A stretch of DNA of 43,963 bases, taken from the NCBI GenBank assembly GCA_017548735.1, contig JAFYZJ010000013.1, positions 1 through 43,963 of the forward strand, read 5' to 3'. The position numbers and the translations under genes were made by a program. Positions 3,530 to 33,607 of the stretch are shown one piece after another; the stretch's first letter is position 1; every line of letters starts with the position of its first letter. The stretch comes from Candidatus Saccharimonadota bacterium (GTDB lineage Bacteria > Patescibacteriota > Saccharimonadia > Saccharimonadales > Saccharimonadaceae). The notes beneath the pieces are model-generated. The model did no database searches. It worked only from the letters and a program-made list of their open reading frames with translations, and was not told the origin of the DNA.

Positions 3530-5257
3530 GTGGAAAGATTTCAGCCATTAGAGAGCGTTGAGGATGTCGAGGAGTTTTACTCGGCGATTAAGCGCGAAAA
3601 AATGACTCATAAGCTCTCGCCAGAGCGCCCTTATTGTTATTGGACGATTGAGACTTACGATAAAAGCAACGGTATCCGCGGCGGCGGCGGCCTAGGCGTG
3701 CTCGCAGCAGATATGCGCCGTGTCGCCGAACAGCTTTCCGTGCCATTTGTGCTCGTCACCCCATTCTATCCATGGGAATCACATCAGCGTATGGAAGACA
3801 TGAAGCAGATTGATTTCCATACTGAGCAGCACTACCGAGATTATGGCTTTGAATTTATCGATACGGTCCGCATTAAGACTTCAACAACTGCTGTCGAGCT
3901 CGAGGTAATTGAAAAACAACTCGGCTCTTCCCGTTTCCTTTGCATCACTGAGCCGAATTTTGGTGAGCTATATTCCGGCGAATCCGGTTCCGATCATCGC
4001 CTCTATCAAGAGGTGGCGCTGGGTTTTGGTGGCTATCAAGCACTCAAGCTCGTCGGTTTGCGCCCAGCCGTCATTCAGCTTAACGAAGTCGCCACTTTCT
4101 TTGCCGCCGTAGCCCGTCTTGATGAGCTTGTGAGCTCCGGCATGGATTTCTATGAGGCAGTAGTCTATACCCGCAAGCACACGCTCTATACGAACCACAC
4201 GCTCGTGCAGGCTGCCGAGGCAAGCTTCAATTATTCCCAGTTCGAGCAGTACGTTTTCCCGAATATCAAGAGCGTCGCAGTCCGTCGCTGGCTCTCGGAT
4301 AAATTCACGAATGGCCGCATTCAACTCTCTACGCCGACCGTTGAGATTGCTGAGCTTCGCAGTGGCGTAAGCAAATTGCACGCACGCGTCGCGAATTACC
4401 ATGATATTAACGGCAATAAGATTAAGTTCAAATCTGTCACGAACGGTATTCATATGCGCACTTGGGTGCTTCCGGAAATCATGGAGTACTTCTACGATAA
4501 GAATATTCTCGATAAGTTCGATTTGCCACCAGAGGAAAAGCTCGAAGAAGCCGTAAATGCGGTTTCCGCTGCCGATATTCGCAAGCTAAAGCTCGCTGGC
4601 CGTAAAAAGCTCAACGAGATCCTCGCAAACCGCACCGATCAGTACGGTAAGCCTGTCCAAATCCCAGAAGAAGCATTACTTTTCGATTTCAAGCGCCGCT
4701 TCGTTGATTACAAGCGCCCATGGTTGCCATTTGAAAACCCGGAGCGCCTTGCCGAGATTCTCGAGCAGAATAATGCGCACTACATCCTTGCTGGCCGCGT
4801 CCATATGGGCGACTACCGCATGTTTGACCGTCTCATGAAGCTTCTTCACCTCATCGATAAGCATCCGGTTTTGCGTGAGCGCGTACATTATTTGCCAGAT
4901 TACGATGAAGAATTAGGCTTCGCACTATCTGTTGGCGCTAATAGCTCCATCAATACGCCGATTGTTGGCCTTGAGGCCTGCGGTACAAGCTGGATGAAGG
5001 ATATTGCCAACCTCGGTCTCCTCATTTCGACCCACGATGGCGGTGTCGCCGATATGCCTTCCGATAACTATCTCAGCATTAAGGGTAAGACTGAAGCCGA
5101 AGAATGCACCGAGCTTTATCGCCAGATGGAAGCCGCCGCTGCTGCATGGAGCAATGATTTTGATCTCGAATATTGGGTCCGCAAGGAATTAGTCGCTTAT
5201 CTTGCGATTATTTCTGGCTCCCGCATGATGAAAGATTATTTGAATTATCTCTTTTAG
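3530..5257 (+). CDS. glgP: alpha-glucan (glycogen/maltodextrin) phosphorylase, GT35 family, short form
   Basis: Motifs seen: GGGGLGVLAAD, TNGIHMRTW, and EACGTSWMK (the PLP-lysine motif, EASGTSxMK-like). GTG start. Confidence 0.8.
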   Translation: MERFQPLESVEDVEEFYSAIKREKMTHKLSPERPYCYWTIETYDKSNGIRGGGGLGVLAADMRRVAEQLSVPFVLVTPFYPWESHQRMEDMKQIDFHTEQHYRDYGFEFIDTVRIKTSTTAVELEVIEKQLGSSRFLCITEPNFGELYSGESGSDHRLYQEVALGFGGYQALKLVGLRPAVIQLNEVATFFAAVARLDELVSSGMDFYEAVVYTRKHTLYTNHTLVQAAEASFNYSQFEQYVFPNIKSVAVRRWLSDKFTNGRIQLSTPTVEIAELRSGVSKLHARVANYHDINGNKIKFKSVTNGIHMRTWVLPEIMEYFYDKNILDKFDLPPEEKLEEAVNAVSAADIRKLKLAGRKKLNEILANRTDQYGKPVQIPEEALLFDFKRRFVDYKRPWLPFENPERLAEILEQNNAHYILAGRVHMGDYRMFDRLMKLLHLIDKHPVLRERVHYLPDYDEELGFALSVGANSSINTPIVGLEACGTSWMKDIANLGLLISTHDGGVADMPSDNYLSIKGKTEAEECTELYRQMEAAAAAWSNDFDLEYWVRKELVAYLAIISGSRMMKDYLNYLF

Positions 5258-6883: not shown

Positions 6884-8008
6884 TTACGGTAAACAGTTGC
6901 CGTTGGCGGCAATATTGCGATTGTAATACCTCTCGTCATCGGTAACTTCCTTGATGACTTCAAGATAATCAGGCACAATCAGCTTGTCATCGGGAGATAC
7001 AAATTCTACCTCGAGAATTGCAAACTCGTTAGAGGACGGATAAACATCTATCTCGAGATACTGACCCGAATCGCGCTGCATAATGCAGAATCTGTTCTTG
7101 TGAATCGAGTTCAGCCCCGGGATCGCATTCATCAGTTCGCTGACATATTCTTCGCGACTAATACGACGTTCGAGCTCGATTCTGACGGCCTTGTCGCTCG
7201 TACTACGCTTGATGGTCTTGGTGAAGATAAAGTCTCCGCCGTATGCACGCTGGCGGACACGAACTTCGTCATCAAATAAGTCACCCTTAAGATAGGTCTG
7301 CATAATCTCGCCTTCCTGGCAATTCGGCAGCGCGCGCAGATAGTCGAGATCGGGCATCTTGATCAGATACTTGCGCTCTATTTCATAGGGCATCGGCTCG
7401 CCAAGCATTACAGATATTTGCTTCAACAACGTCTTCAACTTCGTGTCGAGATCGCCTTCGTTCTTAATGATGCGCAGGTGAGGATGGCCAACCCAGGCAT
7501 TCTGCGTCTTCACGTCAAGCTTAACAGCCTCTTCGGGCGTCTCTGAGCGCGCCTCGTTATTCTGCAACGTGTAACACTCAATTGCGCCATCGGCTGTCGT
7601 GACAAGATGAAATACGGCATCATACTCGGCGACTGCGGCAGACACTACCCCGCGTCCAACACGGGTTACGACCTGTTCAAACTCGCGTGGGCTAACATAG
7701 GCCTTATTGTCATATAGGCCGCGGTCGCAAACAATCATGATTTTTTCGTTCTCCATCATGAGTGCCGCCTGCATTATGCGTTCTTCCTTTGCGAGCTGGG
7801 TCTTAAGAATCATCTCCTGAAAATACAGCGGATCCTTGAATGCCGTCGGAATTATTCCCGACGTAATCAGTTCCGTGGCCGCTTCGTTGACTATGAGGAC
7901 CTTCCAGCCGAGCTTCGTATAGAAGTTCGAAATCCAGCTCAATGCCGTTGTTTTACCGCCGCAAGGACCGCCCGTAAGTACAAACTTACAGATTTTTTTG
8001 TTCAGCAA
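6884..8008 (-). CDS. fusion protein: P-loop NTPase (NadR/AAA_28-like nucleoside kinase fold) plus C-terminal CYTH triphosphate-tunnel domain
   Basis: Walker A is GGPCGGKTT near the N-terminus. The C-terminal half begins with YEIERKYL, the ExExK signature of CYTH domains. I place the start at TTG 8008, 6 nt after AGGAGGTG. The longer ORF to 8122 has no RBS. Confidence 0.7.
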   Translation of the reverse strand: MLNKKICKFVLTGGPCGGKTTALSWISNFYTKLGWKVLIVNEAATELITSGIIPTAFKDPLYFQEMILKTQLAKEERIMQAALMMENEKIMIVCDRGLYDNKAYVSPREFEQVVTRVGRGVVSAAVAEYDAVFHLVTTADGAIECYTLQNNEARSETPEEAVKLDVKTQNAWVGHPHLRIIKNEGDLDTKLKTLLKQISVMLGEPMPYEIERKYLIKMPDLDYLRALPNCQEGEIMQTYLKGDLFDDEVRVRQRAYGGDFIFTKTIKRSTSDKAVRIELERRISREEYVSELMNAIPGLNSIHKNRFCIMQRDSGQYLEIDVYPSSNEFAILEVEFVSPDDKLIVPDYLEVIKEVTDDERYYNRNIAANGNCLP

Positions 8009-8113
8009 ATAAATCACCTCCTGTAACCGTTTTAAAGTACATTGGACAATCAATTTCCAATATCTGGATATAGTATAGCATAATTTGCAAAAATATGTTA
8101 TAATTATAGAGAT

Positions 8114-8140
8114 ACTCCTCAAGAGGAGTTTTGTTATTTT
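8114..8140 (+). promoter_or_regulatory. terminator-like hairpin in the leader of the 8179 operon (possible attenuator)
   Basis: ACTCCT-CAAG-AGGAGT stem followed by TTTTGTTATTTT. It sits between a TATAAT at about 8094-8099 and the RBS of the 8179 gene. Confidence 0.3.
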
Positions 8141-8178: not shown

Positions 8179-8991
8179 ATGAAGATTCGAGGTATCGAAG
8201 TCGACCCAAACGACTTCTTTGCACAAACGAAGAGGTTTAGGGTTTACCTTGGTAATTCGGACAAAGATGGACCTGTTATTCTGAAAGTCGCCAAGACTTT
8301 TGACGATAACGACGTCCTCAACGAAGATGCGGCGACATTTACTCGCTTAGCTGCGAACAGTCAGGAAATAGACGAGTACGAAACCAGCCTTGGTGGCGGG
8401 AATCGTTCTCGCTTTGACTTACTGTTTGCCAGCCTTTTGTCGACGTTTGTCGAAGCGTCTCAAGGTGACCGAAGGATCAATGTTTACCGCGTGCCAGATA
8501 CGAAGCTCAGCAAATTGCTTCCTCTTTCGAAGCTAAAGGCTGATTACGAAATCGACGCACGCAGCTGTGTCTGGATGATAGGGCGAATCCTGAAGTTTTA
8601 TATCTTGTTCGAGAAGGACAAAATGGATGGAAAAGAGACCGTCGCCAGATACCCGGATTTCTACCCAGAGGATTTCCTCATCGGGCCAGAACGCCACCGC
8701 GTAATCTATTACAACTATTCTGGCGGAGAAGACGACTCGATTGCCGACGGTCATATCAAGGCAATTGCGAAGTTTTTTCTCGAATGGATAGTCGTTAATG
8801 ACGAAGCCGAGCAGAGATTATACAATCTGCTCAAAGATTTTTCAGAACATGGTCGCAGTGAGTTTTACGATGCACACTCCAATCTCTATGCGCTCGCTAG
8901 TGAGCTCTGGGGACGTGGAGTGTATTATCCGTTTACTTACCGCGTCCGCGGAACAATCGCCTGGCAGAAACAGAAAGAGGAGGAAAAATAA
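8179..8991 (+). CDS. hypothetical protein, possibly a protein-kinase-like fold (degenerate)
   Basis: 270 aa with a GGAAGGAAG RBS. VILKVAK resembles a beta3 VAIK lysine. RYPDFYPEDFLIG resembles the HGDxHPxNhh catalytic loop of APH/choline-kinase-type kinases, with substitutions. The stop overlaps the next start (TAATG). Confidence 0.7.
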   Translation: MKIRGIEVDPNDFFAQTKRFRVYLGNSDKDGPVILKVAKTFDDNDVLNEDAATFTRLAANSQEIDEYETSLGGGNRSRFDLLFASLLSTFVEASQGDRRINVYRVPDTKLSKLLPLSKLKADYEIDARSCVWMIGRILKFYILFEKDKMDGKETVARYPDFYPEDFLIGPERHRVIYYNYSGGEDDSIADGHIKAIAKFFLEWIVVNDEAEQRLYNLLKDFSEHGRSEFYDAHSNLYALASELWGRGVYYPFTYRVRGTIAWQKQKEEEK

Positions 8992-10094
8992 TGGGCGACA
9001 CAACATTTTCTAAAAGTGACTACTTAAAGACACGCGAGGATTTAGGCATTACGGACGATAGAGGCGTTACTGCAATGGCAGAGCTAGAAGCCCGCGAATC
9101 CGGTATGCTAAATCCAATTGTTGACCCGGCCATCAATCCGATTCGCCGGTCAATGATAAGGCTAGTAGCCGAAAACAAGCATTGGGTTGCGAAGCTCGGC
9201 TGTCCGATGGATATCGAGGTGAGCTGCGATACTACTGCCTCAATGCAGGACGAAGTCGATAATCAAATGAGGGTTTTGCCCGATATGTATGAGGCAATCG
9301 CTAAAGTTCTTCAGGGATATGACCCGCAGCTTTGCTTGGGTATTTTCGGAGACTGTGTCGACGACTTCGTTTTATGCAGACCGCAATACGAGATGGAGGC
9401 GCCAAAGATTGTCAGATATCTGAATGTAATGGCCCCGCAGCGAGGCGGAGGCGGTAATGGCGGCGAAGATCCTCAGTATTCCATGCTGGCACGCGCTTAT
9501 CTTACAGACGCATATACAAACAACATTGGGCTGAAGGGCTACCATTTCATCATTACCGACGAGCCTTGCCATCACGATATTAGCGAAAGACAAATCAGGC
9601 GTATCTTTGGCGAAAATATCTTTGATAATGAGCTCAAAGAAATGAAGGGCGCAATAAAGTCTATCTACGGCATCGTTAGCGACCTCAAGAGCAAAGTTCA
9701 CGCGTTCGCGCTGATCGTAGACGGTCATTATCATTCAGATGAAGCATACGAATCCTACTGCAATCTTTATGGCAGAAAATCCGTAATCCGCATTGATTCG
9801 ACCGAGATGCTGCCGACGATAATATCGGCGATTATCGGGCTTACCGAAGGTACTGTCGAGATAACAGAGCTGAAAGAACGTTTCGGAGACGATATGGATT
9901 CTGAACTGATCAAGCAGCTCTCCAATATTGAGATCGGCGCACAGATGAAGCTGAGACATGCTATGAAGCGCCCAGTACCAAAGGCCGGTGACATCTTCGC
10001 AAAGAAGGGTGACCTCTGGCCGATTCAGCCGGGTGAACTCTCGGAAGATGAAGAAGCTGAGGAAACGGTAGCTGACATAATCAAGTATCTTTGA
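8991..10094 (+). CDS. von Willebrand factor A (vWA) domain protein with a MIDAS-like motif
   Basis: DIEVSCDTTASM is a DxTxS variant of the DxSxS MIDAS motif. A glycine-rich GGGGNGGED loop follows, then HFIITDEP, which is a TDG-like MIDAS Asp. Extra N- and C-terminal regions are present. The start overlaps the upstream stop by 1 nt. Confidence 0.7.
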   Translation: MGDTTFSKSDYLKTREDLGITDDRGVTAMAELEARESGMLNPIVDPAINPIRRSMIRLVAENKHWVAKLGCPMDIEVSCDTTASMQDEVDNQMRVLPDMYEAIAKVLQGYDPQLCLGIFGDCVDDFVLCRPQYEMEAPKIVRYLNVMAPQRGGGGNGGEDPQYSMLARAYLTDAYTNNIGLKGYHFIITDEPCHHDISERQIRRIFGENIFDNELKEMKGAIKSIYGIVSDLKSKVHAFALIVDGHYHSDEAYESYCNLYGRKSVIRIDSTEMLPTIISAIIGLTEGTVEITELKERFGDDMDSELIKQLSNIEIGAQMKLRHAMKRPVPKAGDIFAKKGDLWPIQPGELSEDEEAEETVADIIKYL

Positions 10095-10116
10095 TACTCG
10101 TTAGGAGGCGAAGGCT

Positions 10117-11367
10117 ATGCTCAATGAAGTCAGTATCGTTACGGACCTCGGTCCGGGTGACGGCGGTAAAGGCAAGGTCGTAAATGTTTTCTGCAACGAA
10201 GATAACATTTCATTAGTCATCAAGCGTGGCGGAGCACAAGGTTCGCACGGTGTTCGCTGTTCCAACGGTGAAAAATTTAATTTTTCCCAGTGGGGCTGTG
10301 GCACTTTCGAAGCAATTCCGACATTTCTGTCGCCACAGTTCATCGTTATGCCTGTTGGCCTAATTAATGAGTCTGAGGCACTGGAGCGCAAAGGAATTAT
10401 TAATCCTTTCCGGCTTCTCAGCTGCGACCCAGATTGTATCTGCGCCACCCCTTTCCACTGGATATCCTCACGATTAAGTGAGCTTCTCCGCGGAAAGAAC
10501 CCGCGCGGCACAATCGGTACTGGCGTTGGCCAGGCCTACCGCATGTTTCAGCAATCTGGAGACGAAATGACAATTCGCGCCCGCGAATTGACTGACCACA
10601 ATAAGATTGCTGATAAACTTTTCGCACAACTCAAATTTTACCGAGCTTGCTATCAATACAAGCCCGAAAATTATCTGGACGAAGACGCGGAACACGTCGC
10701 GGAATGCTTCGATTTGCTTAATGATGACGGCTTCTTGGACTACAACATCAATGAATTTGAGAAAGTAGGCCAAATGCTAAGCATTACATCCTTATCTGAA
10801 GCAATCAACAATCACGACGGTTCTGCTGTAATAGAATGTTCGCACGGTGTTTTAACTGACGCAGTAGAGGGCTTTAAGCCGCACACTAGCGCCATTCGCA
10901 CCCTACCGAAATTCACAGAAGAGATGATGAGAAATGCCGGTTTTACCGGTCGAATTAGGCATTATGCCGTACACCGCGCCTATGAAATTAGGCATGGTGC
11001 TGGCCCAATGTCGACATACGACCCCGAGTTTACCAAACATATGCTTCCTGACAGCCATAAAGCGAATAATCGCTGGCAAGGCGAAGTACGTGCCGGTCCT
11101 CTCGACATCAACCTCATCCAGCATGCCCTCGCGGCATGCAAAGACACGAGTTTCGATGGGTTGTGCCTGACTTGGTTTGACCAGATTCTCGAAATGGGAA
11201 GCTGGAAAATCAACGACGACATTATCCCGATCGACTCCAAACTAACCGGAATAGACCTTTGGCGTTTCGTTGAGAATATCATCGATTCGCGCATTGGTTT
11301 ATCTCTAGAATTACTCTCAATTGGCCCAACAGAGCGCGACAGATTACGCGCCCAAGATTTCATTTAG
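10117..11367 (+). CDS. divergent adenylosuccinate synthetase (PurA)-family protein
   Basis: Colinear with PurA motifs: GPGDGGKGK vs QWGDEGKGK; GGAQGSHG vs GGHNAGH; GTIGTGVGQAY vs GTTGRGIGPAY; YEIRHGAGPMSTYDPEF vs TRVGxGPFPTE. The GTTGRxRRxGW block is replaced by NNRWQGEVRAGPLD. AGGAGG RBS. Confidence 0.75.
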   Translation: MLNEVSIVTDLGPGDGGKGKVVNVFCNEDNISLVIKRGGAQGSHGVRCSNGEKFNFSQWGCGTFEAIPTFLSPQFIVMPVGLINESEALERKGIINPFRLLSCDPDCICATPFHWISSRLSELLRGKNPRGTIGTGVGQAYRMFQQSGDEMTIRARELTDHNKIADKLFAQLKFYRACYQYKPENYLDEDAEHVAECFDLLNDDGFLDYNINEFEKVGQMLSITSLSEAINNHDGSAVIECSHGVLTDAVEGFKPHTSAIRTLPKFTEEMMRNAGFTGRIRHYAVHRAYEIRHGAGPMSTYDPEFTKHMLPDSHKANNRWQGEVRAGPLDINLIQHALAACKDTSFDGLCLTWFDQILEMGSWKINDDIIPIDSKLTGIDLWRFVENIIDSRIGLSLELLSIGPTERDRLRAQDFI

Positions 11368-11378
11368 GAGGTATAGCC

Positions 11379-12635
11379 ATGAGTGAAGAGATTAAGAACA
11401 CAACAGCAGAAGAATCCGTAGTAGAAGTAGTTGCAGCAAACCCTGCAACACCCGATGCTCCGGTCGTAGATGCTACACCGGCACCCGCAATTCCAGCACC
11501 GACACCCACTGCAGCAAGCCCTGTCGAACAGAAGCTTACAGAGTATGGCGCAAACGGTGCCACAATTCAGAAAATTCTCGATCTCGGCGTCGAGTCTGTC
11601 GAAGATTTGTCGACCTTAACCGATAGCGATCTCGTAGACGCTGGCATGAAGCTTGTCAAAGCGCGCAAACTTATCGGCGACCTGAAGGCCGAAGCTAAGC
11701 CCGCAGCGACAACACCGACCGCCGCTTCTGGTTTTGTTTTCCCTAGCGCAATAAATTCAATTCTTCCGTCCGTCCCTACAGACGAAGTCTGGATGAACAG
11801 CCTGAAAACCGGTGGCGTATTGAGAATCGATGATTCTACATATATTGCCGCAATTAAGACAGCATTAGCAGCAAAGGTAGGCTTGTATAATGCGCCTCAG
11901 TTGCTCATAGACGAGATGGAGAGACATGCGAAGGATATTGGCGAGCCTGTAGATGCTGACGTATTCTATAAGCTCGTAAAGATGCTGACAAGACACGATT
12001 ATTCCGACATTTTCGCAGCCATCGATGGCTGCTCTGGAGCGTTCATCAACGACAAGCGTCGTAAAGAATTCCTCCAGGAAATCGATAATCACTTCTTGCC
12101 GGCAATCGCAGCTAGCTACCGCGCCCTCGATAGTTGGTATGAGGGATATAAGGATAGCTTTTCTGATCAAATGATGTTGATGGCCTTTATCGCCGGTGGA
12201 GCGAATTCGGGAATTGGCAGTATGATACAGACGCCGGACACTTCCGTAGTTCGCGCAGCAAGAGATACGTTCGTCGACGAGATTAATAAGACTTTTGCTG
12301 GTTGCGGCGTACAGTCCGCTTCCGCCTTAGCGCTCATCGCAAGAGATATTCTCGGGCAGTTTAACGATAATCGCCTTCCGAAATTGGTTGGCGCCGAAAA
12401 CCGCGAACTCATGCTCAAGAAGCTTGGCCTGGACGTTTCTAGTTCCTACGCGCGCCTCGAGCAGATTCTCTCGCAGTATGTTCTCGCATTTGTGAAGCTG
12501 GATGAAGCAACACCCGATACTGAAGCACGCTATTTGGCAGCGCTTTGGCAGCTCGGTTCTCAGATTGACTGGGAGAGCCTTAATATCAGAAGAAATAAAG
12601 GCTCGAAGAGTATCACAGGCAGTGATATTCTGTAA
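11379..12635 (+). CDS. hypothetical protein: Pro/Ala/Thr-rich N-terminus, HhH-like segment, large alpha-helical domain of unknown function
   Basis: 418 aa with a GGAGG RBS 11 nt after the upstream stop. ATIQKILDLGVESVEDL...DAGMKLVKARKLIGDLK looks like a tandem helix-hairpin-helix. The rest has no recognisable motif. Confidence 0.7.
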   Translation: MSEEIKNTTAEESVVEVVAANPATPDAPVVDATPAPAIPAPTPTAASPVEQKLTEYGANGATIQKILDLGVESVEDLSTLTDSDLVDAGMKLVKARKLIGDLKAEAKPAATTPTAASGFVFPSAINSILPSVPTDEVWMNSLKTGGVLRIDDSTYIAAIKTALAAKVGLYNAPQLLIDEMERHAKDIGEPVDADVFYKLVKMLTRHDYSDIFAAIDGCSGAFINDKRRKEFLQEIDNHFLPAIAASYRALDSWYEGYKDSFSDQMMLMAFIAGGANSGIGSMIQTPDTSVVRAARDTFVDEINKTFAGCGVQSASALALIARDILGQFNDNRLPKLVGAENRELMLKKLGLDVSSSYARLEQILSQYVLAFVKLDEATPDTEARYLAALWQLGSQIDWESLNIRRNKGSKSITGSDIL

Positions 12636-12664
12636 TTTCCAGAGTAAAATCAAAACATAAAAGA

Positions 12665-12690
12665 AGACCCCCAAGTACGGGGGTCTTTTT
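12665..12690. terminator. bidirectional intrinsic terminator
   Basis: AGACCCCC / GGGGGTCT stem flanked by an A-run and a T-run, between convergent genes. Confidence 0.7.
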
Positions 12691-12699
12691 CTTGCCCTT

Positions 12700-13860
12700 T
12701 TATAGCCAAACGTATTTAGCAAAGAGCATTGTGGCGATTTTACGGTATTCATCGTCGTAGAACGGACAATCGCCGTCCATTTCCTTAGGAATGCCATTCC
12801 CTTTCCAATTGTAGAATCTAGCGAATCCCTTGTGGAGCAGACGATACAGCAAAAGATCACTCTCAAGCCTTTCAATGCAGCGACGACGCGCAAACTCGTC
12901 GATATCCTTATATCTAGCAACCACGGCGCGTCGCGCAATCTCCATGCGCTCCTGCGCCTTCGGACCACCCAACCAAACACTATCATAGTAGATATGAATG
13001 CCTTCCGGGCTGCCGGGATAGTATTTCCCGACTACGAGTAAATCGTCGAGCAGATACGGATCGATGTCAGAGTTTACGCTGGCGTAACCCTTTATCAGCG
13101 AACCGTTCACCAACACGACTTTTTCCGGCTCAAGCGAAGACGCGATTTCTTCCAGCCTAGGCATTATGATGTGCAGATTATCAGAGAACGGTCCTTCCAG
13201 CTTCGCGCATGGCGTGAGAGCCACGAATGACTGCCCTTTCTCGTCAAGCCACTTCTTACGGCTTTCTGAGACGTAGAGCGGTTCCTGGCGTGTACGATTG
13301 GGCAAATAGCACAGTATCTCGCGAATTTTCTCAATCCGGTCTTTTTGCTTGATTAGTTTCTGTTCGACGCAGTAGGTCATCACATCTTTGAAACTCTGCA
13401 ACATGATGTAGTTATTTCTGCGACTAGCCCCCTCAATGATTGTCTGGAGCTCATACGCCGAAATGTAGCTATTCTTGAGCAGCCAAGGAGTCAAGTGTGC
13501 AGACTTCGATACTCGCTGTAAACCTTCTTCCGGTCGCGCATCGACTTCGAAACAGTCGCCAAAATGGAAATTTTCCCGCACGTCATAGACATACAAGAGT
13601 TCATACCATGCGTCACGGTATACATCTATAAATTCCCTGGGCGCCGCTTCGAGCGTACTAAGTGGAAGATACAGCGCAAGGCGCCTCGCTTCCGGTTTTC
13701 TCAATAGTTCGGTGCAGGCTTTGTAATAATCGACTCTCTTCGACCCTGAAGGGTCTTTGAGATAATCACAAATCCTCATCGCAGCCGACTTCCTTGGACA
13801 GGAATCCGGCTCGGCCTCTTCGTAACGTGTTTCGATATACGGCTTTAGATAGTTAACCAT
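12700..13860 (-). CDS. Pol-beta-superfamily nucleotidyltransferase domain protein with a large N-terminal domain of unknown function
   Basis: VNGSLIKGYASVNSDIDPYL matches the hG[GS]-x9-13-D-h-D minimal NTase motif. I place the start at ATG 13860 (MVNYLKP) after AGGGGGA. The longer ORF to 14127 would overlap rplK and its promoter. Confidence 0.7.
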   Translation of the reverse strand: MVNYLKPYIETRYEEAEPDSCPRKSAAMRICDYLKDPSGSKRVDYYKACTELLRKPEARRLALYLPLSTLEAAPREFIDVYRDAWYELLYVYDVRENFHFGDCFEVDARPEEGLQRVSKSAHLTPWLLKNSYISAYELQTIIEGASRRNNYIMLQSFKDVMTYCVEQKLIKQKDRIEKIREILCYLPNRTRQEPLYVSESRKKWLDEKGQSFVALTPCAKLEGPFSDNLHIIMPRLEEIASSLEPEKVVLVNGSLIKGYASVNSDIDPYLLDDLLVVGKYYPGSPEGIHIYYDSVWLGGPKAQERMEIARRAVVARYKDIDEFARRRCIERLESDLLLYRLLHKGFARFYNWKGNGIPKEMDGDCPFYDDEYRKIATMLFAKYVWL

Positions 13861-13941
13861 AAAATCCCCCTTTCTTGTAATGTGCAATAGTAATGTTATT
13901 ATGCCATATTTTGCTATTTTTTTCAATGGGGCACCTTCTCC

Positions 13942-13970
13942 TTGCAAAAAACGCCAAAATCCGGTATAAT
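13942..13970 (+). promoter_or_regulatory. consensus sigma-70 promoter of rplK
   Basis: TTGCAA (13942-13947), a 17-nt spacer, then TATAAT (13965-13970). A leader of about 70 nt follows, with ACGAT/ATCGT and GCCGG/CCGGC hairpins. Confidence 0.65.
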
Positions 13971-14047
13971 AGACCGCGTTACGCACGATTATTAATCGTA
14001 ATCGCCGGTGAAGCGCTTCAAAAACCGGCAAAAGGAAAATTAATAAC

Positions 14048-14473
14048 ATGGCAAAACAGGTTATTGGCAACTTGAAGTTGCGCATCCCTGGTGGTAAGGC
14101 GACGGCCGGTCCTCCAGTAGGTAGCACACTCGGTCAGTGGGGTCTCAATATGATGGACTTCATTAACCCATTCAACGAAGCCACCAAAGAATACATGGGC
14201 AAGAATGTGATTGTTCACATCGCTGTCTATGATGATCGCACTTTCGATTGGAAGTGCCTTGGCCAGCCAGTTGACGATTTGATCCGCGAAAAGATCAAGC
14301 TCGAAAAAGGCAGCGGTCGCCCAAACACTGAGAAAGTTGGTAAGATTACCATGGCTCAGATCAAGGAAATCGCAGAAGTCAAGAAAGGTCAGCTCAACGC
14401 TATCGACGAAGCTGGCGCTTGCAAGATTATTGCCGGCACCGCACGCTCGATGGGCGTCGAAGTTGTCGAATAA
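14048..14473 (+). CDS. rplK: 50S ribosomal protein L11
   Basis: LKLRIPGGKATAGPPVGSTLGQWGLNMMDF and full-length colinearity with L11. Confidence 0.95.
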   Translation: MAKQVIGNLKLRIPGGKATAGPPVGSTLGQWGLNMMDFINPFNEATKEYMGKNVIVHIAVYDDRTFDWKCLGQPVDDLIREKIKLEKGSGRPNTEKVGKITMAQIKEIAEVKKGQLNAIDEAGACKIIAGTARSMGVEVVE

Positions 14474-27968: not shown

Positions 27969-28916
27969 TTACCACAAATAAGATTCAATTATCTCAGGAA
28001 TCGGAATTTCGAGCAAAACGAGGCAGTTTTCGTCCAACCTCTGGCCGAGATGATTAATTAGATCGATATCTTCGGAGAAGAATTTGATTTTCTTGTTGTC
28101 GTTCTGGGTTTGCTGACCGCCGAGGATAAGGATTTCGCTAACGAGATCATAATCGACCTTTGCAAGCTTGCGGACATCATCGGTAACCAAGATGCGATCC
28201 GGAGCATCGATACTATAGAGCGCCTGAAGACCGTACTTCATTGAAGTCTTGGATGTGCTAGCAGAGTCGTCGAGAATAATCGAATTATGAAGACCCTTGG
28301 CTGGCGACATGCGGCCATGAACTGGGCGAATTGCGTCGACGCCCGCGAGGATATGGTCGCGGTCAACCTGGAAGAGTTTTGCGACAGCACAAGCCATCAC
28401 GACTGGGCGCATGTTATGCTCACCAATAAGCTTGACGGTGACTGGAATATGCTCGCGCTCTGGATTGACGATATCGCCCTGCTGGCCATCGAGACCAGAG
28501 TCATGATTCTCGAAGTAGAAATCTGCTGGCAACTCATCGCCATAAGTAGTAATCTCGGCATTCTTGAGATATTTGGCGAATTTCTGCGGTACGTCATTGT
28601 AGTTCACGAAAACGTGCTTGGCGCGGTTCGCGAGCGCAAAGAACTTTTGCGCCTCTTCGTCAGTCTCGCAACTCGTCACGACAACGATATCTGGGTCAAT
28701 GTCCGGGAACATCACCATCGAATTATAATCGAGCAACACAATGTCTGGATCGGCGGCTTTATTGACGCCCATCGTTACCGTAAAGACCTGGCCAAGAACC
28801 ATGCCAAGGCAGCGAATCGCCGACTTGCGGCCAAAAGAACCAGCGATAACAATCGTCTTTACTTGCGGATTGCGGCGAAAATACCGCTCCATCTTGCTTT
28901 TGGCGTCAAAAATCAT
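27969..28916 (-). CDS. short, divergent Mur-ligase-family protein
   Basis: IAGSFGRKS aligns with the Mur ligase P-loop (GTNGKTT). IGEHN, HGR and LDDSASTS (compare DDSYNAN of MurF) are colinear. At 315 aa it lacks the N-terminal domain. Confidence 0.5.
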   Translation of the reverse strand: MIFDAKSKMERYFRRNPQVKTIVIAGSFGRKSAIRCLGMVLGQVFTVTMGVNKAADPDIVLLDYNSMVMFPDIDPDIVVVTSCETDEEAQKFFALANRAKHVFVNYNDVPQKFAKYLKNAEITTYGDELPADFYFENHDSGLDGQQGDIVNPEREHIPVTVKLIGEHNMRPVVMACAVAKLFQVDRDHILAGVDAIRPVHGRMSPAKGLHNSIILDDSASTSKTSMKYGLQALYSIDAPDRILVTDDVRKLAKVDYDLVSEILILGGQQTQNDNKKIKFFSEDIDLINHLGQRLDENCLVLLEIPIPEIIESYLW

Positions 28917-29545
28917 TATTTCTTTGCCTTCCTAATTGCTTTGCGAACAGCTTTGTCTTCGAGCTTTTCGTCCTTGCTATGAACACCGAAGAAGAGGTCA
29001 GTGAGACCGTTTACCATGAGGTAAGTGCCAAAGACGAGCACCTTCGTATTGAAGAATGCGCCGACCGATTCGGAGCCGCTGGTTGCGCCACCAAGCATAA
29101 GGAATGCGAGAACTGCGCCAATTGCGCCGTTAACAATCCACATAAAGCGGTCGGTCATGTTATTGAAGCTCACGAAGCCCATTGCAATCGTGACGATTGA
29201 CGCGAAGGCGACGTAGCCAGCGAGAATTGCAATGCGCAAAGCGACGAGGCTTTCGTCTGTCATGTTTGGATCGACGGTGTATAGGAGAGCAACGCTAATT
29301 GCGAGCTCCAAGAAGCCCAAGAATAGCGGGAAGCCCCAGTTGTGCGAACGTTTTTTGCGATAGACGACGTTTGCTAACTCGACGAGCGCGAGGCCAAACA
29401 TTGTCCAGCCGAGAATCTGAGTTAGATAATGTGTATCCTGGTTGCGTGAGAACATGAGGCAGAGACCTGCCACCACTGAAACCGCACCCTTCATGGCAAA
29501 TGTAAGCCAATGACTTTCAATAAATTTTTTCGTTGTGTTGCTCAC
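28916..29545 (-). CDS. multi-pass membrane protein (possibly DUF308/HdeD-like)
   Basis: Six predicted TM helices and a basic C-tail. I prefer the GTG start at 29545, 9 nt after AAGGAG. The alternative TTG at 29602 has no RBS. Confidence 0.55.
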   Translation of the reverse strand: MSNTTKKFIESHWLTFAMKGAVSVVAGLCLMFSRNQDTHYLTQILGWTMFGLALVELANVVYRKKRSHNWGFPLFLGFLELAISVALLYTVDPNMTDESLVALRIAILAGYVAFASIVTIAMGFVSFNNMTDRFMWIVNGAIGAVLAFLMLGGATSGSESVGAFFNTKVLVFGTYLMVNGLTDLFFGVHSKDEKLEDKAVRKAIRKAKK

Positions 29546-29608
29546 TTGAAAAAGCTCCTTAATTTCTACTTTAAGGATACAATAAGCATAAGCTTTTTTC
29601 AAGAATTT

Positions 29609-30628
29609 CTAGACGTGGCGAATCTTGGCGCGGAGCTTTTCGACCGCATAATCTAGGCGATATTTTGCCGGCTTAATGACCATGTCGTGCGCATGCAGGT
29701 ATTGAAGCTCTTCAACGCCAAAGCTGCGCTTGAATTGGCTGACGCCGTAGAAGCGATGCTTAGTCTCATCAAGGCCAGTGATGCCCCAGAAATTGTAGCG
29801 TTTGATACCGCGTTCGCGGGCGTCGCGCATAGCCTGCATATGAAGAAGTGGCGCGCCAGAATACTTCGTGCCGAGCGCCGTTGACACGCCATAGTGATAG
29901 CTCGCTTCGTTGCCGTAGAAAATCATGAAGTTCTGGGCAAGAATCTCGTCGCCAAGTTTCGCAGTATAGAGTTTCACTTCGTCGTATTTTGCGAAGGCTT
30001 CGAATTGCTTGGTTAGAAAGCTTTCCGAGAACTCGACGAAACCGTGACGCTTCGCAGTTTCGAGCTCAATTTGGTAGAATTCGTGAATATCTTTTGGATC
30101 AGTGCTGGTCAAAACGGTTATCTCATTTTTCTCAGCCTTGCGGATTTTGCGACGAAGGCCCTGGGCGGCATTCGCGAGGATTTCTTCCTCTGGCTTCGAG
30201 ATATCTAGGACGCCAGCGAGCTCAACCGATAGATAGATTGGAGCAGGCCTTAGCCCTAAGTCTTTGAAGAGTTTGCGGTTCTTTTCGGTCTCAAGAATTT
30301 GTGGGCGAATACGCACAAAGACACACTTGGCCGCTTCGGCCTGCGCCTTAATGTCGGCAAAAATCGCTTCGCGAAGAGCTTTCTTGCCCCAGTCCATAAT
30401 TGGACCACCGGCAATCGCCATATAGGTGCCGCGCTTGGCGGTTTCTACCTGGCCAACATAGGCTGCGATAATATTCTCATCATTATCGAGTGCAATGCGG
30501 CGAACGACTTTTTTGCCGCGCGCTTCATGAAAATCACCCCATGCCCATGACTGCAAAAAGTTTGCATCATCATGGCTAGTAATGAATTTATCCCATTTCT
30601 TCTGGTCGGTTGCATCAATAATCTTCAT
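29609..30628 (-). CDS. FemAB-family peptidoglycan aminoacyltransferase (FemX-like)
   Basis: N-terminal FLQSWAWGDFH and a size of about 340 aa are typical of FemX/FemAB. It is a paralog of the adjacent gene. Confidence 0.8.
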   Translation of the reverse strand: MKIIDATDQKKWDKFITSHDDANFLQSWAWGDFHEARGKKVVRRIALDNDENIIAAYVGQVETAKRGTYMAIAGGPIMDWGKKALREAIFADIKAQAEAAKCVFVRIRPQILETEKNRKLFKDLGLRPAPIYLSVELAGVLDISKPEEEILANAAQGLRRKIRKAEKNEITVLTSTDPKDIHEFYQIELETAKRHGFVEFSESFLTKQFEAFAKYDEVKLYTAKLGDEILAQNFMIFYGNEASYHYGVSTALGTKYSGAPLLHMQAMRDARERGIKRYNFWGITGLDETKHRFYGVSQFKRSFGVEELQYLHAHDMVIKPAKYRLDYAVEKLRAKIRHV

Positions 30629-30635
30629 ATTTCTC

Positions 30636-31652
30636 CTATAGGTGACGTTTCTTTTTGCGGGCTTTTTCGATCGCGCTTACGAGCTTGTAGCGCAGTTTGT
30701 TTACGACGATATCCTGTGCCGGGAGATAGGCGATTTGCTCACCGCCGAAGCCAGTCTTGAAGGTCGTAACGCCAGCAAAGCGATGGTTTGGCGAATTCGG
30801 CGGCGCGATACCAAAGAGGTTGTAGCGCTTCATGCCGAGCTTCTTGGCGTCCTGAATGATCTGCCATTGCAATGCGTAGGCGCCTGGGAATTTGCGGCCA
30901 TCCGGGGTTGATGCGGCTTCATGGTAAATTGCTTCCGGCGCACTAAAAATCACCAAGCCTTGGCAAAGCTTCTTGCCATCAAGCTCTGCGGTATAGATGC
31001 GAGCCATGTCGCCATAGACTTCGTGCTGCGCGAGCACGCAGTTGCGCGAGCTAGGGACGAAACCCTGGCGCTCAGCAGTCTGGAGCTGCAAATCATAGAA
31101 ATCATTAAAAGCTTGCTTAGTTGTTTCGTAGCTGACCTTTATACCGAGTTTTGCCGAGCGGCGCACCTCGTAGCGCGTTTGGCGACGCATTTCGGTCATC
31201 AAATCTTCGTCCGATTTGCCCATATCGAGCATGATAGTATTTTCGGCGTGAAGTAACATTGGCGCTGGCACGAGACCGACTTTCTTGGCGGTCGCAAGGT
31301 GCGCTGGCGTATTGTCGATATTCGGGCGAATGCGCACAAAAACGCATTTTTCGGCCGCAGCGAGTTTTTTAATCTCGTCGATAAAGAAGCGGATTGGCTT
31401 GATTGGGCCATCCCAGTCCATAACTGGGCCGCCCGGGATTTCAAAATAGCGACCGCGACGCGCGTCTTTGCGAATAACGACAGCGGAGCCGATAATCTTC
31501 TCGCCATCATAGAGACCGAGATACTTGGCTTTTTCGCCTTCAACTTCGTGAACCTTACCCCAATTTGACATTTGCAAAAAGTTCATCTCCGGGTGCTGCT
31601 TCGAGATAAATTCGTCGAGTGTTTTCGGCTCAATCGCAACGACTTTTAACAT
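30636..31652 (-). CDS. FemAB-family peptidoglycan aminoacyltransferase (second paralog)
   Basis: FLQMSNWGKVH and colinearity with the 29609-30628 product (for example VFVRIRP, RYNFWG/RYNLFG). Confidence 0.8.
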   Translation of the reverse strand: MLKVVAIEPKTLDEFISKQHPEMNFLQMSNWGKVHEVEGEKAKYLGLYDGEKIIGSAVVIRKDARRGRYFEIPGGPVMDWDGPIKPIRFFIDEIKKLAAAEKCVFVRIRPNIDNTPAHLATAKKVGLVPAPMLLHAENTIMLDMGKSDEDLMTEMRRQTRYEVRRSAKLGIKVSYETTKQAFNDFYDLQLQTAERQGFVPSSRNCVLAQHEVYGDMARIYTAELDGKKLCQGLVIFSAPEAIYHEAASTPDGRKFPGAYALQWQIIQDAKKLGMKRYNLFGIAPPNSPNHRFAGVTTFKTGFGGEQIAYLPAQDIVVNKLRYKLVSAIEKARKKKRHL

Positions 31653-32338
31653 TTCTTGCCTCCTGCGAGCTTGACAAATTTCTCCGCAATCACATCGGCG
31701 AGCTCATTGGTCGAAACGAGATAATGCGAATGGCGCCAACCATCCTTGACGGTTAGCTCGGAACCCTTAATGAGTTCGTGAATTTTCTTGCCTTGGCGAA
31801 GCGGCGTGATATTGTCGTCCGACCCCCATATAATCTGCGTCGGCGTCGTAACTTTTGCGATATCGAGAGCCTTGTCGGAATCAAGCATATTAGTAAGGGT
31901 GACCTTCATGTTCTCTGGCGCGTTCTCATAGTCGCTTGCGCCCAAAATCTTGTGCGCCAACTTGCGGGCAAACTTGGATTTTTTGAGTGGCGAAAGCGCC
32001 TTCGAGAGACCGCGCGAAATGTCACGCTTGGCAGATTTCTCGTAATAGCCAGCGGCGTCAAGCAAGATGATTCCCTTGAGATAATCTGGCTCTTTGCTCA
32101 GCAAATTCAAGAGAATGCGACCGCCATTGCTGTGACCAAGTGCAATGCTACCTTTCGGCAAATTCTCTTTTGCCCAGGTGACGTAGTCCTCAATCGTAAA
32201 TGATTTTTTGGAAGGCTTGCCAAGGCCAGGCACACGTAATAATTCCGCATCAATACCCTGCGCCCTTAGATCTTTTATGACATCAAGCCATGGCTCTGGC
32301 TTGTAGGTCCAACCGTGCAAAATATATAACTTTTTCAT
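31646..32338 (-). CDS. alpha/beta hydrolase
   Basis: The nucleophile elbow is GHSNGG. Size and secondary-structure pattern fit the alpha/beta hydrolase fold. Confidence 0.7.
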   Translation of the reverse strand: MKKLYILHGWTYKPEPWLDVIKDLRAQGIDAELLRVPGLGKPSKKSFTIEDYVTWAKENLPKGSIALGHSNGGRILLNLLSKEPDYLKGIILLDAAGYYEKSAKRDISRGLSKALSPLKKSKFARKLAHKILGASDYENAPENMKVTLTNMLDSDKALDIAKVTTPTQIIWGSDDNITPLRQGKKIHELIKGSELTVKDGWRHSHYLVSTNELADVIAEKFVKLAGGKKC

Positions 32339-33607
32339 CTATTTGAGCCCCCAACTTGCGCGACGCTTTTTGTGCGCAGCGTCTTGGCGTGCCAATTTCA
32401 CGACATCTTCTGGATTTGCAAGCAATTTCTCAACGATCCATTCGAGATACTGGCTACCCTTGAACATCACGGTTTCTTTGCCGGCGAGATTCTTTTCAAG
32501 ATAGCTAAGTGCTTGCTGCGGTTTGTCGAAGGATTCAAAATCGCATTTGCCTTCGAGCAGCGGCGCGGTATATTTCTTCGTACGGCGGCCAATCATGATA
32601 ATCTTTTCCGCCTTGACGCCGAGCAACAAATCGGCAAGCTTCTTGTGTTCGTCGCCCTCGAGTGCGCCCTGGTCGATAATATCGCCAATCACAAGCCACT
32701 TGTGCGGCGCCTTCATTTCTTTCATCATATCAAGCACGGTCGTCATGCTAATAATGTGAGCATTGTAGCTCGAATCGATAATCTTAATGCCGTTTTTGCC
32801 CTCGAGGTAATTGCTGCGGGCTGGCGGCATTTTATAATTCGAAAGATCCGTATTTGCCTTCACGCCGAGATAATCGGCGAGCTTATCGAGCATCAAAAGC
32901 TGGGTCGTCACGTCTCGCGGCATCGGCTCGTTGAAGACAAATTTCTTTTTGCCGATCGTAAAGGTAGCCTGATTTGGCACGACCGCGTAATCTTTGAGCT
33001 GGCTTTTATGGACACCAACCACGTCAGCAAGAAGGCCTTCGCATTTCTCACGCATTACCTCGTTGTCGCCGTCGATTAAAACAAGCTTCTTGGTATTCTT
33101 TGGAATTTGCGCAAATTCGTGCGCAATCGCCTCGTCGATATTAATAAAGCGACCGCTTTTGACCTCGTTTTCATAGAAAACAGCATGCGAACGGCCAAGG
33201 CTAACCCAGAGCGAAACCTCAGGCTTGAGCCATTTAGCAACAAATTCAGCCTCATGCGGGCGCTCGCCATCACATTCGACCACATAATATTTCTCTTTGC
33301 GGCGATAGAAAAGCGAGCGAATTGGCAAACCAAAAATCAGAGCGAACCAATAGAGCTTGCTGCCGGTAATGCCGTGCATGCCGACGATATCGAAAGCAAT
33401 GCCGAAGGCGGAGTTAGCGTTGTGCGAATAGTGCGCCTTGTCGCCAAGCTGGCACTCGATGAGGTTGAGCATCGTGGTTTTGCCCGCCGATCCGGTTACG
33501 ATAATAACGCGCGGTTTCCAGCGCTTGAGCGAGTGGTTGGCAAAAAACTTGAAGTAGCCAGCCGCCACAAAATAGAATTTTTTCTTGAGTTTAAAAGCTA
33601 AAGTCAT
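32339..33607 (-). CDS. Mur ligase family protein, MurF-like
   Basis: P-loop VTGSAGKTT and DSSYNAH (MurF DDSYNANP-like). First gene of the long minus-strand operon. An extended -10 (TGgTATAAT, 33624-33616) lies 8 nt upstream of the ATG. Confidence 0.75.
   Translation of the reverse strand: MTLAFKLKKKFYFVAAGYFKFFANHSLKRWKPRVIIVTGSAGKTTMLNLIECQLGDKAHYSHNANSAFGIAFDIVGMHGITGSKLYWFALIFGLPIRSLFYRRKEKYYVVECDGERPHEAEFVAKWLKPEVSLWVSLGRSHAVFYENEVKSGRFINIDEAIAHEFAQIPKNTKKLVLIDGDNEVMREKCEGLLADVVGVHKSQLKDYAVVPNQATFTIGKKKFVFNEPMPRDVTTQLLMLDKLADYLGVKANTDLSNYKMPPARSNYLEGKNGIKIIDSSYNAHIISMTTVLDMMKEMKAPHKWLVIGDIIDQGALEGDEHKKLADLLLGVKAEKIIMIGRRTKKYTAPLLEGKCDFESFDKPQQALSYLEKNLAGKETVMFKGSQYLEWIVEKLLANPEDVVKLARQDAAHKKRRASWGLK

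Follow-up and report, generated by a model that had tools for sequence, protein, structure and literature searches.

The window analysed here is a 43,963-nucleotide (nt) stretch from Candidatus Saccharimonadota bacterium (GenBank assembly GCA_017548735.1, contig JAFYZJ010000013.1, positions 1 to 43,963 of the forward strand). Our gene of interest lies at positions 10,117 to 11,367 and encodes a 416-amino acid (aa) protein of the adenylosuccinate synthetase superfamily, referred to below as PurA-like. Residues are numbered as in Escherichia coli PurA unless a position in the window protein is given. The gene and its motifs are as follows:

10117..11367, plus strand: PurA-like gene, 416 aa, ATG start; member of the 'RHG/WQG' subfamily, a vWA-linked group within the adenylosuccinate synthetase superfamily
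10103..10108, plus strand: Shine-Dalgarno sequence AGGAGG, 8 nt 5' of the PurA-like ATG, read directly from the sequence
10156..10176, plus strand: P-loop G14-D15-G16-G17-K18-G19-K20, in which D15 aligns with the catalytic Asp13 of E. coli PurA
10246..10248, plus strand: His44, which aligns with catalytic His41 in E. coli PurA and is conserved in 134/134 sequences
10990..10998, plus strand: R292-H293-G294, which is R-V-G (V273) in PurA and PurZ; the His is a hallmark of the subfamily
11068..11091, plus strand: N318-R319-W320-Q321-G322-E323-V324-R325, in place of the E. coli PurA aspartate loop A299-T300-T301-G302-R303-R304-R305-R306
11170..11181, plus strand: T352-W353-F354-D355, equivalent to the PurA guanine-specificity motif T-K-L-D (D333), with the Asp retained and the Lys substituted

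An earlier note on this DNA, made from the sequence alone, had claimed that the protein is colinear with adenylosuccinate synthetase, and both sequence searches and structure prediction agree. The protein matches PF00709 (Adenylsucc_synt) in Pfam at E = 3e-27, and a PDB sequence search aligned E. coli PurA colinearly with residues 12-363 (E = 7e-13). The AlphaFold2 model, with 12 homologues as input, has a pLDDT of 85.6 and a pTM of 0.87. Long-form PurA structures superpose on this model with TM scores of 0.70-0.74 in Foldseek, while PurZ/PurZ0 structures reach query-normalised TM scores of 0.48-0.60. Low-confidence segments of the model are the loops that become ordered upon ligand binding in PurA. 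Every motif quoted in the earlier note is present in the translation, namely GDGGKGK (residues 14-20), GAQGSHG (39-45), GTIGTGVGQAY (131-141), IRHGAGPMSTYDPEF (291-305) and NNRWQGEVRAGPLD (317-330).

We aligned 61 Saccharibacteria and 73 viral homologues (n = 134) with E. coli PurA, phiVC8 PurZ and S-2L PurZ. The roles of most ligand-contact residues follow from established structural knowledge of E. coli PurA, in which the Asp13/His41 pair moves the gamma-phosphate of GTP to the C6 carbonyl oxygen of IMP, serving acceptor activation rather than GTP binding, and V273 contacts the nucleotide ribose. For R303 and V273, roles in ligand contact were taken from PMC8342488. The alignment upholds the earlier proposal that GTP and phosphoryl-transfer residues are retained while the substrate pockets are rewritten. 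D13, K16 and H41 are present in 134/134 sequences, D333 in 132/134 and S414 in 126/134, and all five are kept in the window protein. G12, G15, G17, R272, G274, G276 and P277 are also retained in the subfamily, as are T128 and T239 (as S/T) and the C-terminal SxGP of the GTP site.

Conservation does not extend to the substrate side, so that a comparison of IMP-, aspartate- and GTP-contacting residues, which had been suggested as a check, finds the aspartate contacts lost and most of the IMP contacts changed. Relative to E. coli PurA, the window protein carries N38->Q, T129->I, R131->T, Q224->H, V273->H, T300->W, T301->Q, R305->V and K331->W, with R143 absent and R303 deleted. Among the IMP phosphate and base contacts N38, T129, T239, R143' and Q224, T239 is the sole one kept, conservatively as Ser. 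Most of these changes are family-wide: V273 is His in 134/134 sequences (Val in E. coli PurA and both PurZ proteins), N38 is Gln in 132/134 and T301 is Gln in 133/134, T300 is W/F/Y, R303 is deleted, R305 is V/L/F/I, R131 is T/S or hydrophobic, R143 is absent, T129 is I/V/C and K331 is W/C/H. Only Q224->H is confined to Saccharibacteria (61/61), viral members retaining Gln. As a result, the L-aspartate binders T300, T301, R303, R305 and R131 are all absent from the subfamily, all four substrate arginines (R131, R143, R303 and R305) are lost, and the TTGRRRR aspartate loop has become x[W/F/Y]QGxxR. The TT..R loop was seen in 0/83 viral sequences and in none of the 150 and 120 cellular matches listed. 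Since the substrate-site changes are invariant across hundreds of homologues, they are not decay, and H273, the aromatic residue at 300, Q301 and Q38 together form a new invariant pocket.

The subfamily resembles PurA (EC 6.3.4.4; PDB 1ADE, 1CG0) in its full-length fold, P-loop, Asp13/His41, Asp333, SxGP, T239/S and T128. It differs in that PurA holds the aspartate binders, R143 and T129, whereas the subfamily instead has N38Q, V273H and K331W, and in that PurA belongs to a purine context while the PurA-like gene has vWA and kinase-like partners. From the retained catalytic residues we predict that PurA chemistry is shared, and the protein as a whole reads as a neofunctionalised PurA paralogue acting outside purine metabolism. 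The alternative of a divergent yet genuine adenylosuccinate synthetase, used for purine salvage in a reduced Saccharibacteria genome, would account for the existing annotation of cellular relatives as adenylosuccinate synthetase and for the kept fold, GTP site and catalytic residues. It would also suit the dependence of Saccharibacteria on nucleotide interconversion (PMC7786006, PMC11665869). However, the loss of the aspartate binders and R143 throughout the family makes this highly improbable, as do scores of 60-62 bits against the NCBIfam PurA equivalogs TIGR00184 and NF002223, whose cut-offs are 395-402. Furthermore, linkage to vWA and kinase-like genes is foreign to purine operons, and neither purB nor any other purine gene was found in the window. 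The subfamily also occurs in phages and in multi-Mb genomes of Cyanobacteria, Chloroflexota and Planctomycetota, in which a canonical purA is expected.

To our knowledge, PurZ is the only known neofunctionalised branch of PurA, and it led to the discovery of Z-DNA biosynthesis. The earlier note had likened the window protein to it as a case of 'PurZ-type neofunctionalisation', and the part of this claim that holds is the altered PurA paralogue; Asp13->Ser, the aspartate loop, the short form and the Z genes, which are the features of PurZ itself, are not found. Both groups include phage-borne paralogues of PurA with changed specificity (for PurZ/PurZ0, PDB 6FM1, 7ODX and 7VF6), and both fall within PHROG phrog_1211. 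A PurZ/PurZ0-type enzyme, making the precursor of Z (2-aminoadenine) from dGMP and aspartate, would be consistent with phrog_1211 ('2-aminooxy adenylosuccinate synthetase') being the best PHROG match, and phage homologues are so named in RefSeq. Even so, we regard this reading as extremely improbable, and rejected the PurZ identity on defining residues and genomic context. Ser replaces Asp13 in 100% of phage PurZ and PurZ0 (PMC12884076), and in our single alignment the position is Ser in phiVC8 and S-2L PurZ but Asp in 134/134 subfamily sequences. The D333 position is N or Q in PurZ, in contrast to the guanine-specific Asp of the subfamily. PurZ keeps the aspartate-contact loop (S-2L T273-T276) and uses aspartate (PMC8342488), so that its nucleotide was switched and its aspartate kept, whereas the PurA-like subfamily has dispensed with both the pocket for aspartate and the arginine for the IMP phosphate. 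PurZ is of the short archaeal type (about 340-360 aa), the PurA-like protein is of the long form (416 aa), and no PurZ entry in the PDB matched it at E <= 1e-3. PurZ genes accompany DatZ and MazZ, or DutZ and DmtZ (also DUF5664 and a Z-selective polymerase), while PurA-like genes do not; the window is from a cellular genome and contains none of DatZ, MazZ, DpoZ, DutZ or DmtZ.

The subfamily is large. A phmmer search of 1.84 billion representatives (50% identity clusters) returned 904 clusters at E <= 1e-30, from which we infer a size of about 900 clusters at 50% identity; a canonical aspartate loop is absent from all 150 matches listed. A figure of 6,526 proteins from a profile search was rejected as family size because the profile also catches E. 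coli PurA, which scores 149 bits compared with >= 180 for viral members, so profile totals are not subfamily-specific. Among the 120 cellular matches listed, Asp13 is present in 120/120, RHG in 119/120 and the TT loop in 0/120, and named cellular members include Herpetosiphonaceae, Anaerolineales and Tepidisphaeraceae. On the viral side, at least 483 IMG/VR contigs, mostly from 100-500-kb genomes, encode PurA-like relatives. In a published tree (PMC12884076), PF00709 homologues from phages (several hundred) and from prokaryotes (about 50) fall into neither the PurA nor the PurZ group and receive no comment; we infer that these correspond to the PurA-like clade.

Current labels do not reflect this. 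RefSeq applies the PurZ name '2-aminooxy adenylosuccinate synthetase' to the PurA-like proteins of cluster C mycobacteriophages and of some Vibrio phages, among them pv27; since Asp13 is kept and the aspartate loop is absent, this label is probably wrong and no pointer to Z-DNA, and it would falsely mark >200 cluster C mycobacteriophages as Z-genome candidates. The 'adenylosuccinate synthetase' label on Saccharibacteria, Chloroflexota and cyanobacterial members is probably wrong too, and distorts metabolic reconstruction of Patescibacteria by crediting them with an AMP-synthesis step that they probably lack.

The window is a fragment of a Candidatus Saccharibacteria chromosome. It encodes SecE, NusG, ribosomal protein L1, RRF, ParA/ParB, Mur ligases, FemAB, trigger factor, CdsA and a thioredoxin-reductase-like protein. 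A phage origin was excluded on the basis of these housekeeping genes, the lack of DNA similarity to 50,697 phage records, and the fact that the window's closest relative is a Saccharibacteria metagenome-assembled genome, at 95% identity. The nearest relatives of the PurA-like protein (47-59% identity) are >800 proteins labelled Candidatus Saccharibacteria, on contigs of up to 408 kb. A scan of one genome per species gave 61 loci, all from Saccharibacteria/Saccharimonadia and including a closed 1.19-Mb chromosome; one of these loci is 95% identical to the window's.

Across 68 Saccharibacteria loci, a module of five genes is constant while the flanking genes vary. Relative to the PurA-like gene, a 270-aa gene lies at about -1.9 kb in 63/68 loci, a 367-aa gene at about -1.1 kb in 66/68, a gene of roughly 400 aa at +1.4 kb in 63/68, and a convergent gene of 400-475 aa is present in 61/68. 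The first four genes form a tight operon in the window, with genes 1 and 2 overlapping and later gaps of 22 and 11 nt. The remaining features of the module are as follows:

8179..8991, plus strand: kinase-fold partner, 270 aa, lacking the HxD catalytic Asp, the metal-binding Asn, the DFG Asp and a J-domain
8991..10094, plus strand: vWA-fold partner, 367 aa, with metal ion-dependent adhesion site (MIDAS) residues D80-T-T-x-S84 and T189-D190; overlapping at its start with the stop of the gene before it
11379..12635, plus strand: fourth operon gene, 418 aa, with an Ala/Pro-rich N-terminus, a possible helix-hairpin-helix (HhH)/SAM-like segment and a conserved domain
12664..12687, no strand assigned: GC-rich palindromic hairpin of 10 bp, AAGACCCCCGTACTTGGGGGTCTT, between the convergent genes at the operon end; likely a bidirectional terminator
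12700..14127, minus strand: convergent gene, 475 aa, with a Pol-beta-type nucleotidyltransferase core G342-S-x3-G-Y-x4-S-D354-x-D356 and conserved helical flanks

The vWA-like, 418-aa and 475-aa proteins had no match in Pfam, NCBIfam, PADLOC or single-sequence PDB searches. For the 367-aa protein, an AlphaFold2 model (pTM 0.79) nevertheless identifies the fold: its top Foldseek matches in the PDB are all integrin I-like or vWA domains, with a probability of 1.00, and the MIDAS motif DxTxS...TD is invariant in the family alignment. The N-terminus is also conserved, as M1-G2-x3-[F/W/Y]-[S/D/N]-x3-[Y/W/F] followed by [V/L]DPx5RxS, and the window protein has an aromatic residue at 6, Ser at 7 and Tyr at 11. 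Among Saccharibacteria 60/61 homologues begin with M1-G2, as do 67/70 among viruses. An internal 'MG' marks the true start where the open reading frame call extends upstream. Low pLDDT in the model indicates that this tail is probably flexible.

The 270-aa protein matches the PHROG 'kinase' family phrog_3043 (E = 6e-5) and kinase gp106 of mycobacteriophage Tonenili (BLASTP E = 3e-9). An HMM of its family recovers gp106, itself Pkinase-positive (2e-44), and also the active DnaJ-Pkinase that a 485-kb phage encodes (1e-12). The catalytic Asp is lost across Saccharibacteria kinase-fold proteins, and the metal-binding Asn and DFG Asp are lost as well in the window's subclade; the window protein is therefore a pseudokinase. 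Viral kinase partners have an N-terminal HPD (J-domain) motif in 32/42 cases and a canonical catalytic core (HxD..N) in 3/42. There is also a weak Pfam TCAD9 match among the kinase partners.

The 475-aa protein carries a GS-x10-DxD motif, and its profile weakly matches the nucleotidyltransferases MNT HI0073 (E = 0.003), GLD2 and MntA. In P0285, an 1129-aa protein (locus L155, 3421-6810), a PurA-like domain is fused to a C-terminal homologue of this nucleotidyltransferase (hhalign probability 100%, E = 2.7e-43), with kinase-like (4e-37) and vWA (4e-43) genes immediately upstream. This fusion marks the nucleotidyltransferase as a genuine functional partner in cellular versions of the module. The P-loop of the fusion lineage (P0285 and P0287) is degenerate: it carries Asp13->Glu and reads GIGEETKS or GIAIGEETKG. 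Other C-terminal extensions occur in P0287 (700 aa) and P0317 (794 aa), and a possible transmembrane segment is seen in P0317.

For the 418-aa protein we found no Pfam, NCBIfam, PADLOC or PDB-profile match. The gene is absent from viral loci and is Saccharibacteria-specific; the gene downstream of the Tonenili PurA-like gene shows no homology to it. Residues 55-100 give weak SAM/HhH-like matches. The protein is 74% identical in a relative (L008) that is otherwise 95-99% identical, and its Ala/Pro-rich N-terminal region appears to evolve fast.

The earlier note had also pointed to a vWA-containing operon outside any purine setting, and this linkage turns out to be conserved in Saccharibacteria, Cyanobacteria, Chloroflexia and large phages. 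In Tonenili the order is kinase gp106, hypothetical gp105 and PurA-like gp104 (L007, 4980-6308), gp105 being homologous to the 367-aa vWA protein (BLASTP E = 8e-8). The vWA family phrog_2971 ('unknown function') and the PurA-like family occur in identical groups of GenBank phages: Mycobacterium (201), Rhizobium (10) and Vibrio (6). We inspected the neighbourhoods of 80 IMG/VR loci. A vWA gene is present in 77/80, nearly always directly upstream, and in the other 3 the PurA-like gene is at a contig edge; a kinase-like gene is present in about 50/80. No further recurrent neighbour was seen in these loci, the next family occurring in 10/80. Complete kinase-vWA-PurA-like triads were also found in Pleurocapsa (Cyanobacteria) and in one Chloroflexia genome. 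In the uncultured 485-kb phage LR745208 (L071, 3815-6778), the genes for a DnaJ-Pkinase, apparently active, and for a vWA homologue precede one for a pyruvate-kinase-barrel-like protein (PF00224, E = 6e-8). This arrangement suggests that the kinase-vWA pair is able to work with more than one kind of phosphotransfer enzyme.

Among described systems, the TerY-P triad (vWA protein TerY, Ser/Thr kinase and PP2C) is similar in placing a MIDAS vWA protein beside a kinase-fold protein and a third enzyme, and vWA ternary conflict systems (Kaur et al. 2020) are similarly enriched among phages and among bacteria that are filamentous or multicellular. Unlike TerY-P, the PurA-like module has no PP2C, its kinase is in most cases a pseudokinase that frequently carries a J-domain, and its third part is a PurA-fold GTP enzyme. 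Unlike MoxR-vWA chaperone couples, it has no AAA+ MoxR gene. The module is not mentioned in Kaur et al. 2020 (PMC7159879), no PADLOC-DB v2 defence model matched the five module proteins of the window at E <= 0.1, and our literature search found no description of the PurA-like subfamily or of the kinase-vWA-PurA-like triad. The module thus appears to be undescribed so far.

Taken together, these data lead us to propose, as the reading that is probably correct, that PurA-like proteins are a third branch of the superfamily that uses GTP to activate a carbonyl or lactam and joins it to an amine other than aspartate within a vWA/pseudokinase complex. GTP-dependent phosphoryl transfer would activate the oxygen of a carbonyl or lactam group in a nucleotide-like acceptor, and the activated oxygen would then be displaced by an amine other than free aspartate. 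The enzyme would accordingly be a phosphotransferase or ligase working outside purine biosynthesis. One candidate nucleophile is the alpha-amine of the vWA N-terminal glycine, which would give a protein-nucleotide conjugate; this idea is speculative and quite unlikely. Gly2 would be bared by Met removal, and the aromatic/hydrophobic pocket that formerly held aspartate would accommodate the tail G-x3-[F/W/Y]-[S/D/N]-x3-[Y/W/F]. Such a reaction would agree with the loss of arginines that bind carboxylates, with the aromatic pocket and with the invariance of Gly2. Two exceptions also fit it, in that Met-Gly is missing from the L071 vWA protein, which is paired with a pyruvate-kinase-barrel protein in place of PurA-like, and from the L155 vWA protein, which is paired with the PurA-like domain bearing Asp13->Glu and a degenerate P-loop.

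Extended to the whole module, the glycine idea becomes N-terminal protein 'purinylation', a hitherto unknown modification, which we consider quite doubtful. The PurA-like ligase would join a GTP-activated purine nucleotide or lactam to the vWA glycine, with the pseudokinase as scaffold (assisted in phages by the J-domain and Hsp70); the fused or adjacent nucleotidyltransferase of Saccharibacteria would extend or further modify the adduct, and it is through the modified MIDAS-vWA protein that the module would act, in giant phages and bacteria alike.

Two other explanations compete with the proposed carbonyl- or lactam-activating enzyme. The PurA-like protein may be a small-molecule enzyme that converts a nucleotide or nucleoside-like metabolite with ammonia or another small, less anionic amine, for instance by direct amination of IMP or in making a signalling or toxic purine derivative, with the vWA and (pseudo)kinase proteins as sensors or regulators and the nucleotidyltransferase processing the product further. 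In its favour, the enzyme keeps the catalytic Asp/His pair, its GTP site and, within the phosphate cradle, T239/S and T128/S, and the occurrence in phages and in filamentous or multicellular bacteria is the phyletic pattern typical of conflict systems. The L071 pair in front of a pyruvate-kinase-barrel protein suggests a regulatory pair with swappable effectors, and the nucleotidyltransferase fusion fits a two-step nucleotide pathway. However, ammonia would predict a small, polar pocket rather than the aromatic/hydrophobic one observed, a phosphorylation switch is unlikely when most kinase partners are catalytically dead, the PADLOC defence models are unmatched, and the invariant Met-Gly of the vWA protein would be left unexplained. 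We consider this explanation unlikely, though it deserves more weight than a non-enzymatic role, which is very unlikely. There, the PurA fold would serve as a GTP-binding and -hydrolysing regulatory subunit of a vWA/pseudokinase complex, a switch or scaffold with no acceptor chemistry that in phages is helped by the J-domain and Hsp70. Such a role would suit the loss of substrate arginines and the remodelled pockets, the partnership with protein-interaction modules (MIDAS vWA, pseudokinase and J-domain), and the tolerance of Asp13->Glu and a degenerate P-loop in one lineage. Yet Asp13 and His41 are invariant although in PurA they activate the acceptor and do not bind GTP, and H273, Q301, the aromatic residue at 300 and Q38 are equally invariant, which points to a defined ligand site under selection.

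It should also be noted that several observations weigh against the proposed amine-joining enzyme and its glycine variant. The acceptor, the nucleophile and catalysis itself are predicted. K18, the second lysine of the P-loop, occurs in the window protein without being conserved across the family. N38Q, the change of T129 to I/V/C, the loss of R143 and the Saccharibacterial Q224H show that the nucleotide pocket is altered too, and the acceptor may therefore be neither IMP nor any nucleotide. Conservation of the vWA N-terminus could reflect Met excision, stability or docking instead of nucleophile chemistry, and the L071 and L155 exceptions are one case each. The 418-aa protein and the nucleotidyltransferase are missing from phage and cyanobacterial versions, so their roles may be lineage-specific. 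Finally, a subfamily member in Reticulibacter mediterranei (L156, 7001-8398; motifs GFGDAGKG and TRHGAGP) lacks any vWA or kinase-like neighbour within 7 kb, and the partnership is thus not absolute.

A third PurA branch would be notable for its size, its distinct active site and its near-obligate partners, a vWA protein with an N-terminal Gly and a J-domain pseudokinase. It would range from giant phages of Mycobacterium, Vibrio and Rhizobium to ultra-small Saccharibacteria, Cyanobacteria and Chloroflexota. Knowing its substrate could uncover new chemistry of nucleotides or of protein modification, and the genetic accessibility of mycobacteriophages makes the module experimentally tractable.

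Other genes near the module were recorded in several genomes. A gene of the Thg1-like tRNA-His guanylyltransferase family lies a few kb from the module in L071 (8281-9174) and in the Chloroflexia locus L158 (1-502), in the latter beside an AAA_33 kinase, and a polynucleotide kinase is encoded about 1 kb upstream of the Tonenili triad; these placements may be coincidental. Upstream of the Reticulibacter PurA-like gene, on the opposite strand, are an APH-family kinase-fold gene and a DEAD helicase.

Within the window, the module is adjoined upstream by a gene for a 412-aa protein (6884-8122, minus strand) with an AAA_28 P-loop and a C-terminal phrog_6660 match, which is probably unrelated to the module since it is present in only 6/68 loci. 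Positions 3530-5257 encode a 575-aa protein that may be a divergent phosphorylase: its only matches, weak and partial, are to PF00343 glycogen/carbohydrate phosphorylase (E = 1e-14) and an 'unknown' PHROG. Two tandem FemAB genes (29609-31652, minus strand) lie amid Mur-ligase-like genes (27969-33607, minus strand) beside parAB, and together the FemAB and Mur-ligase-like genes are a peptidoglycan cross-bridge cluster.

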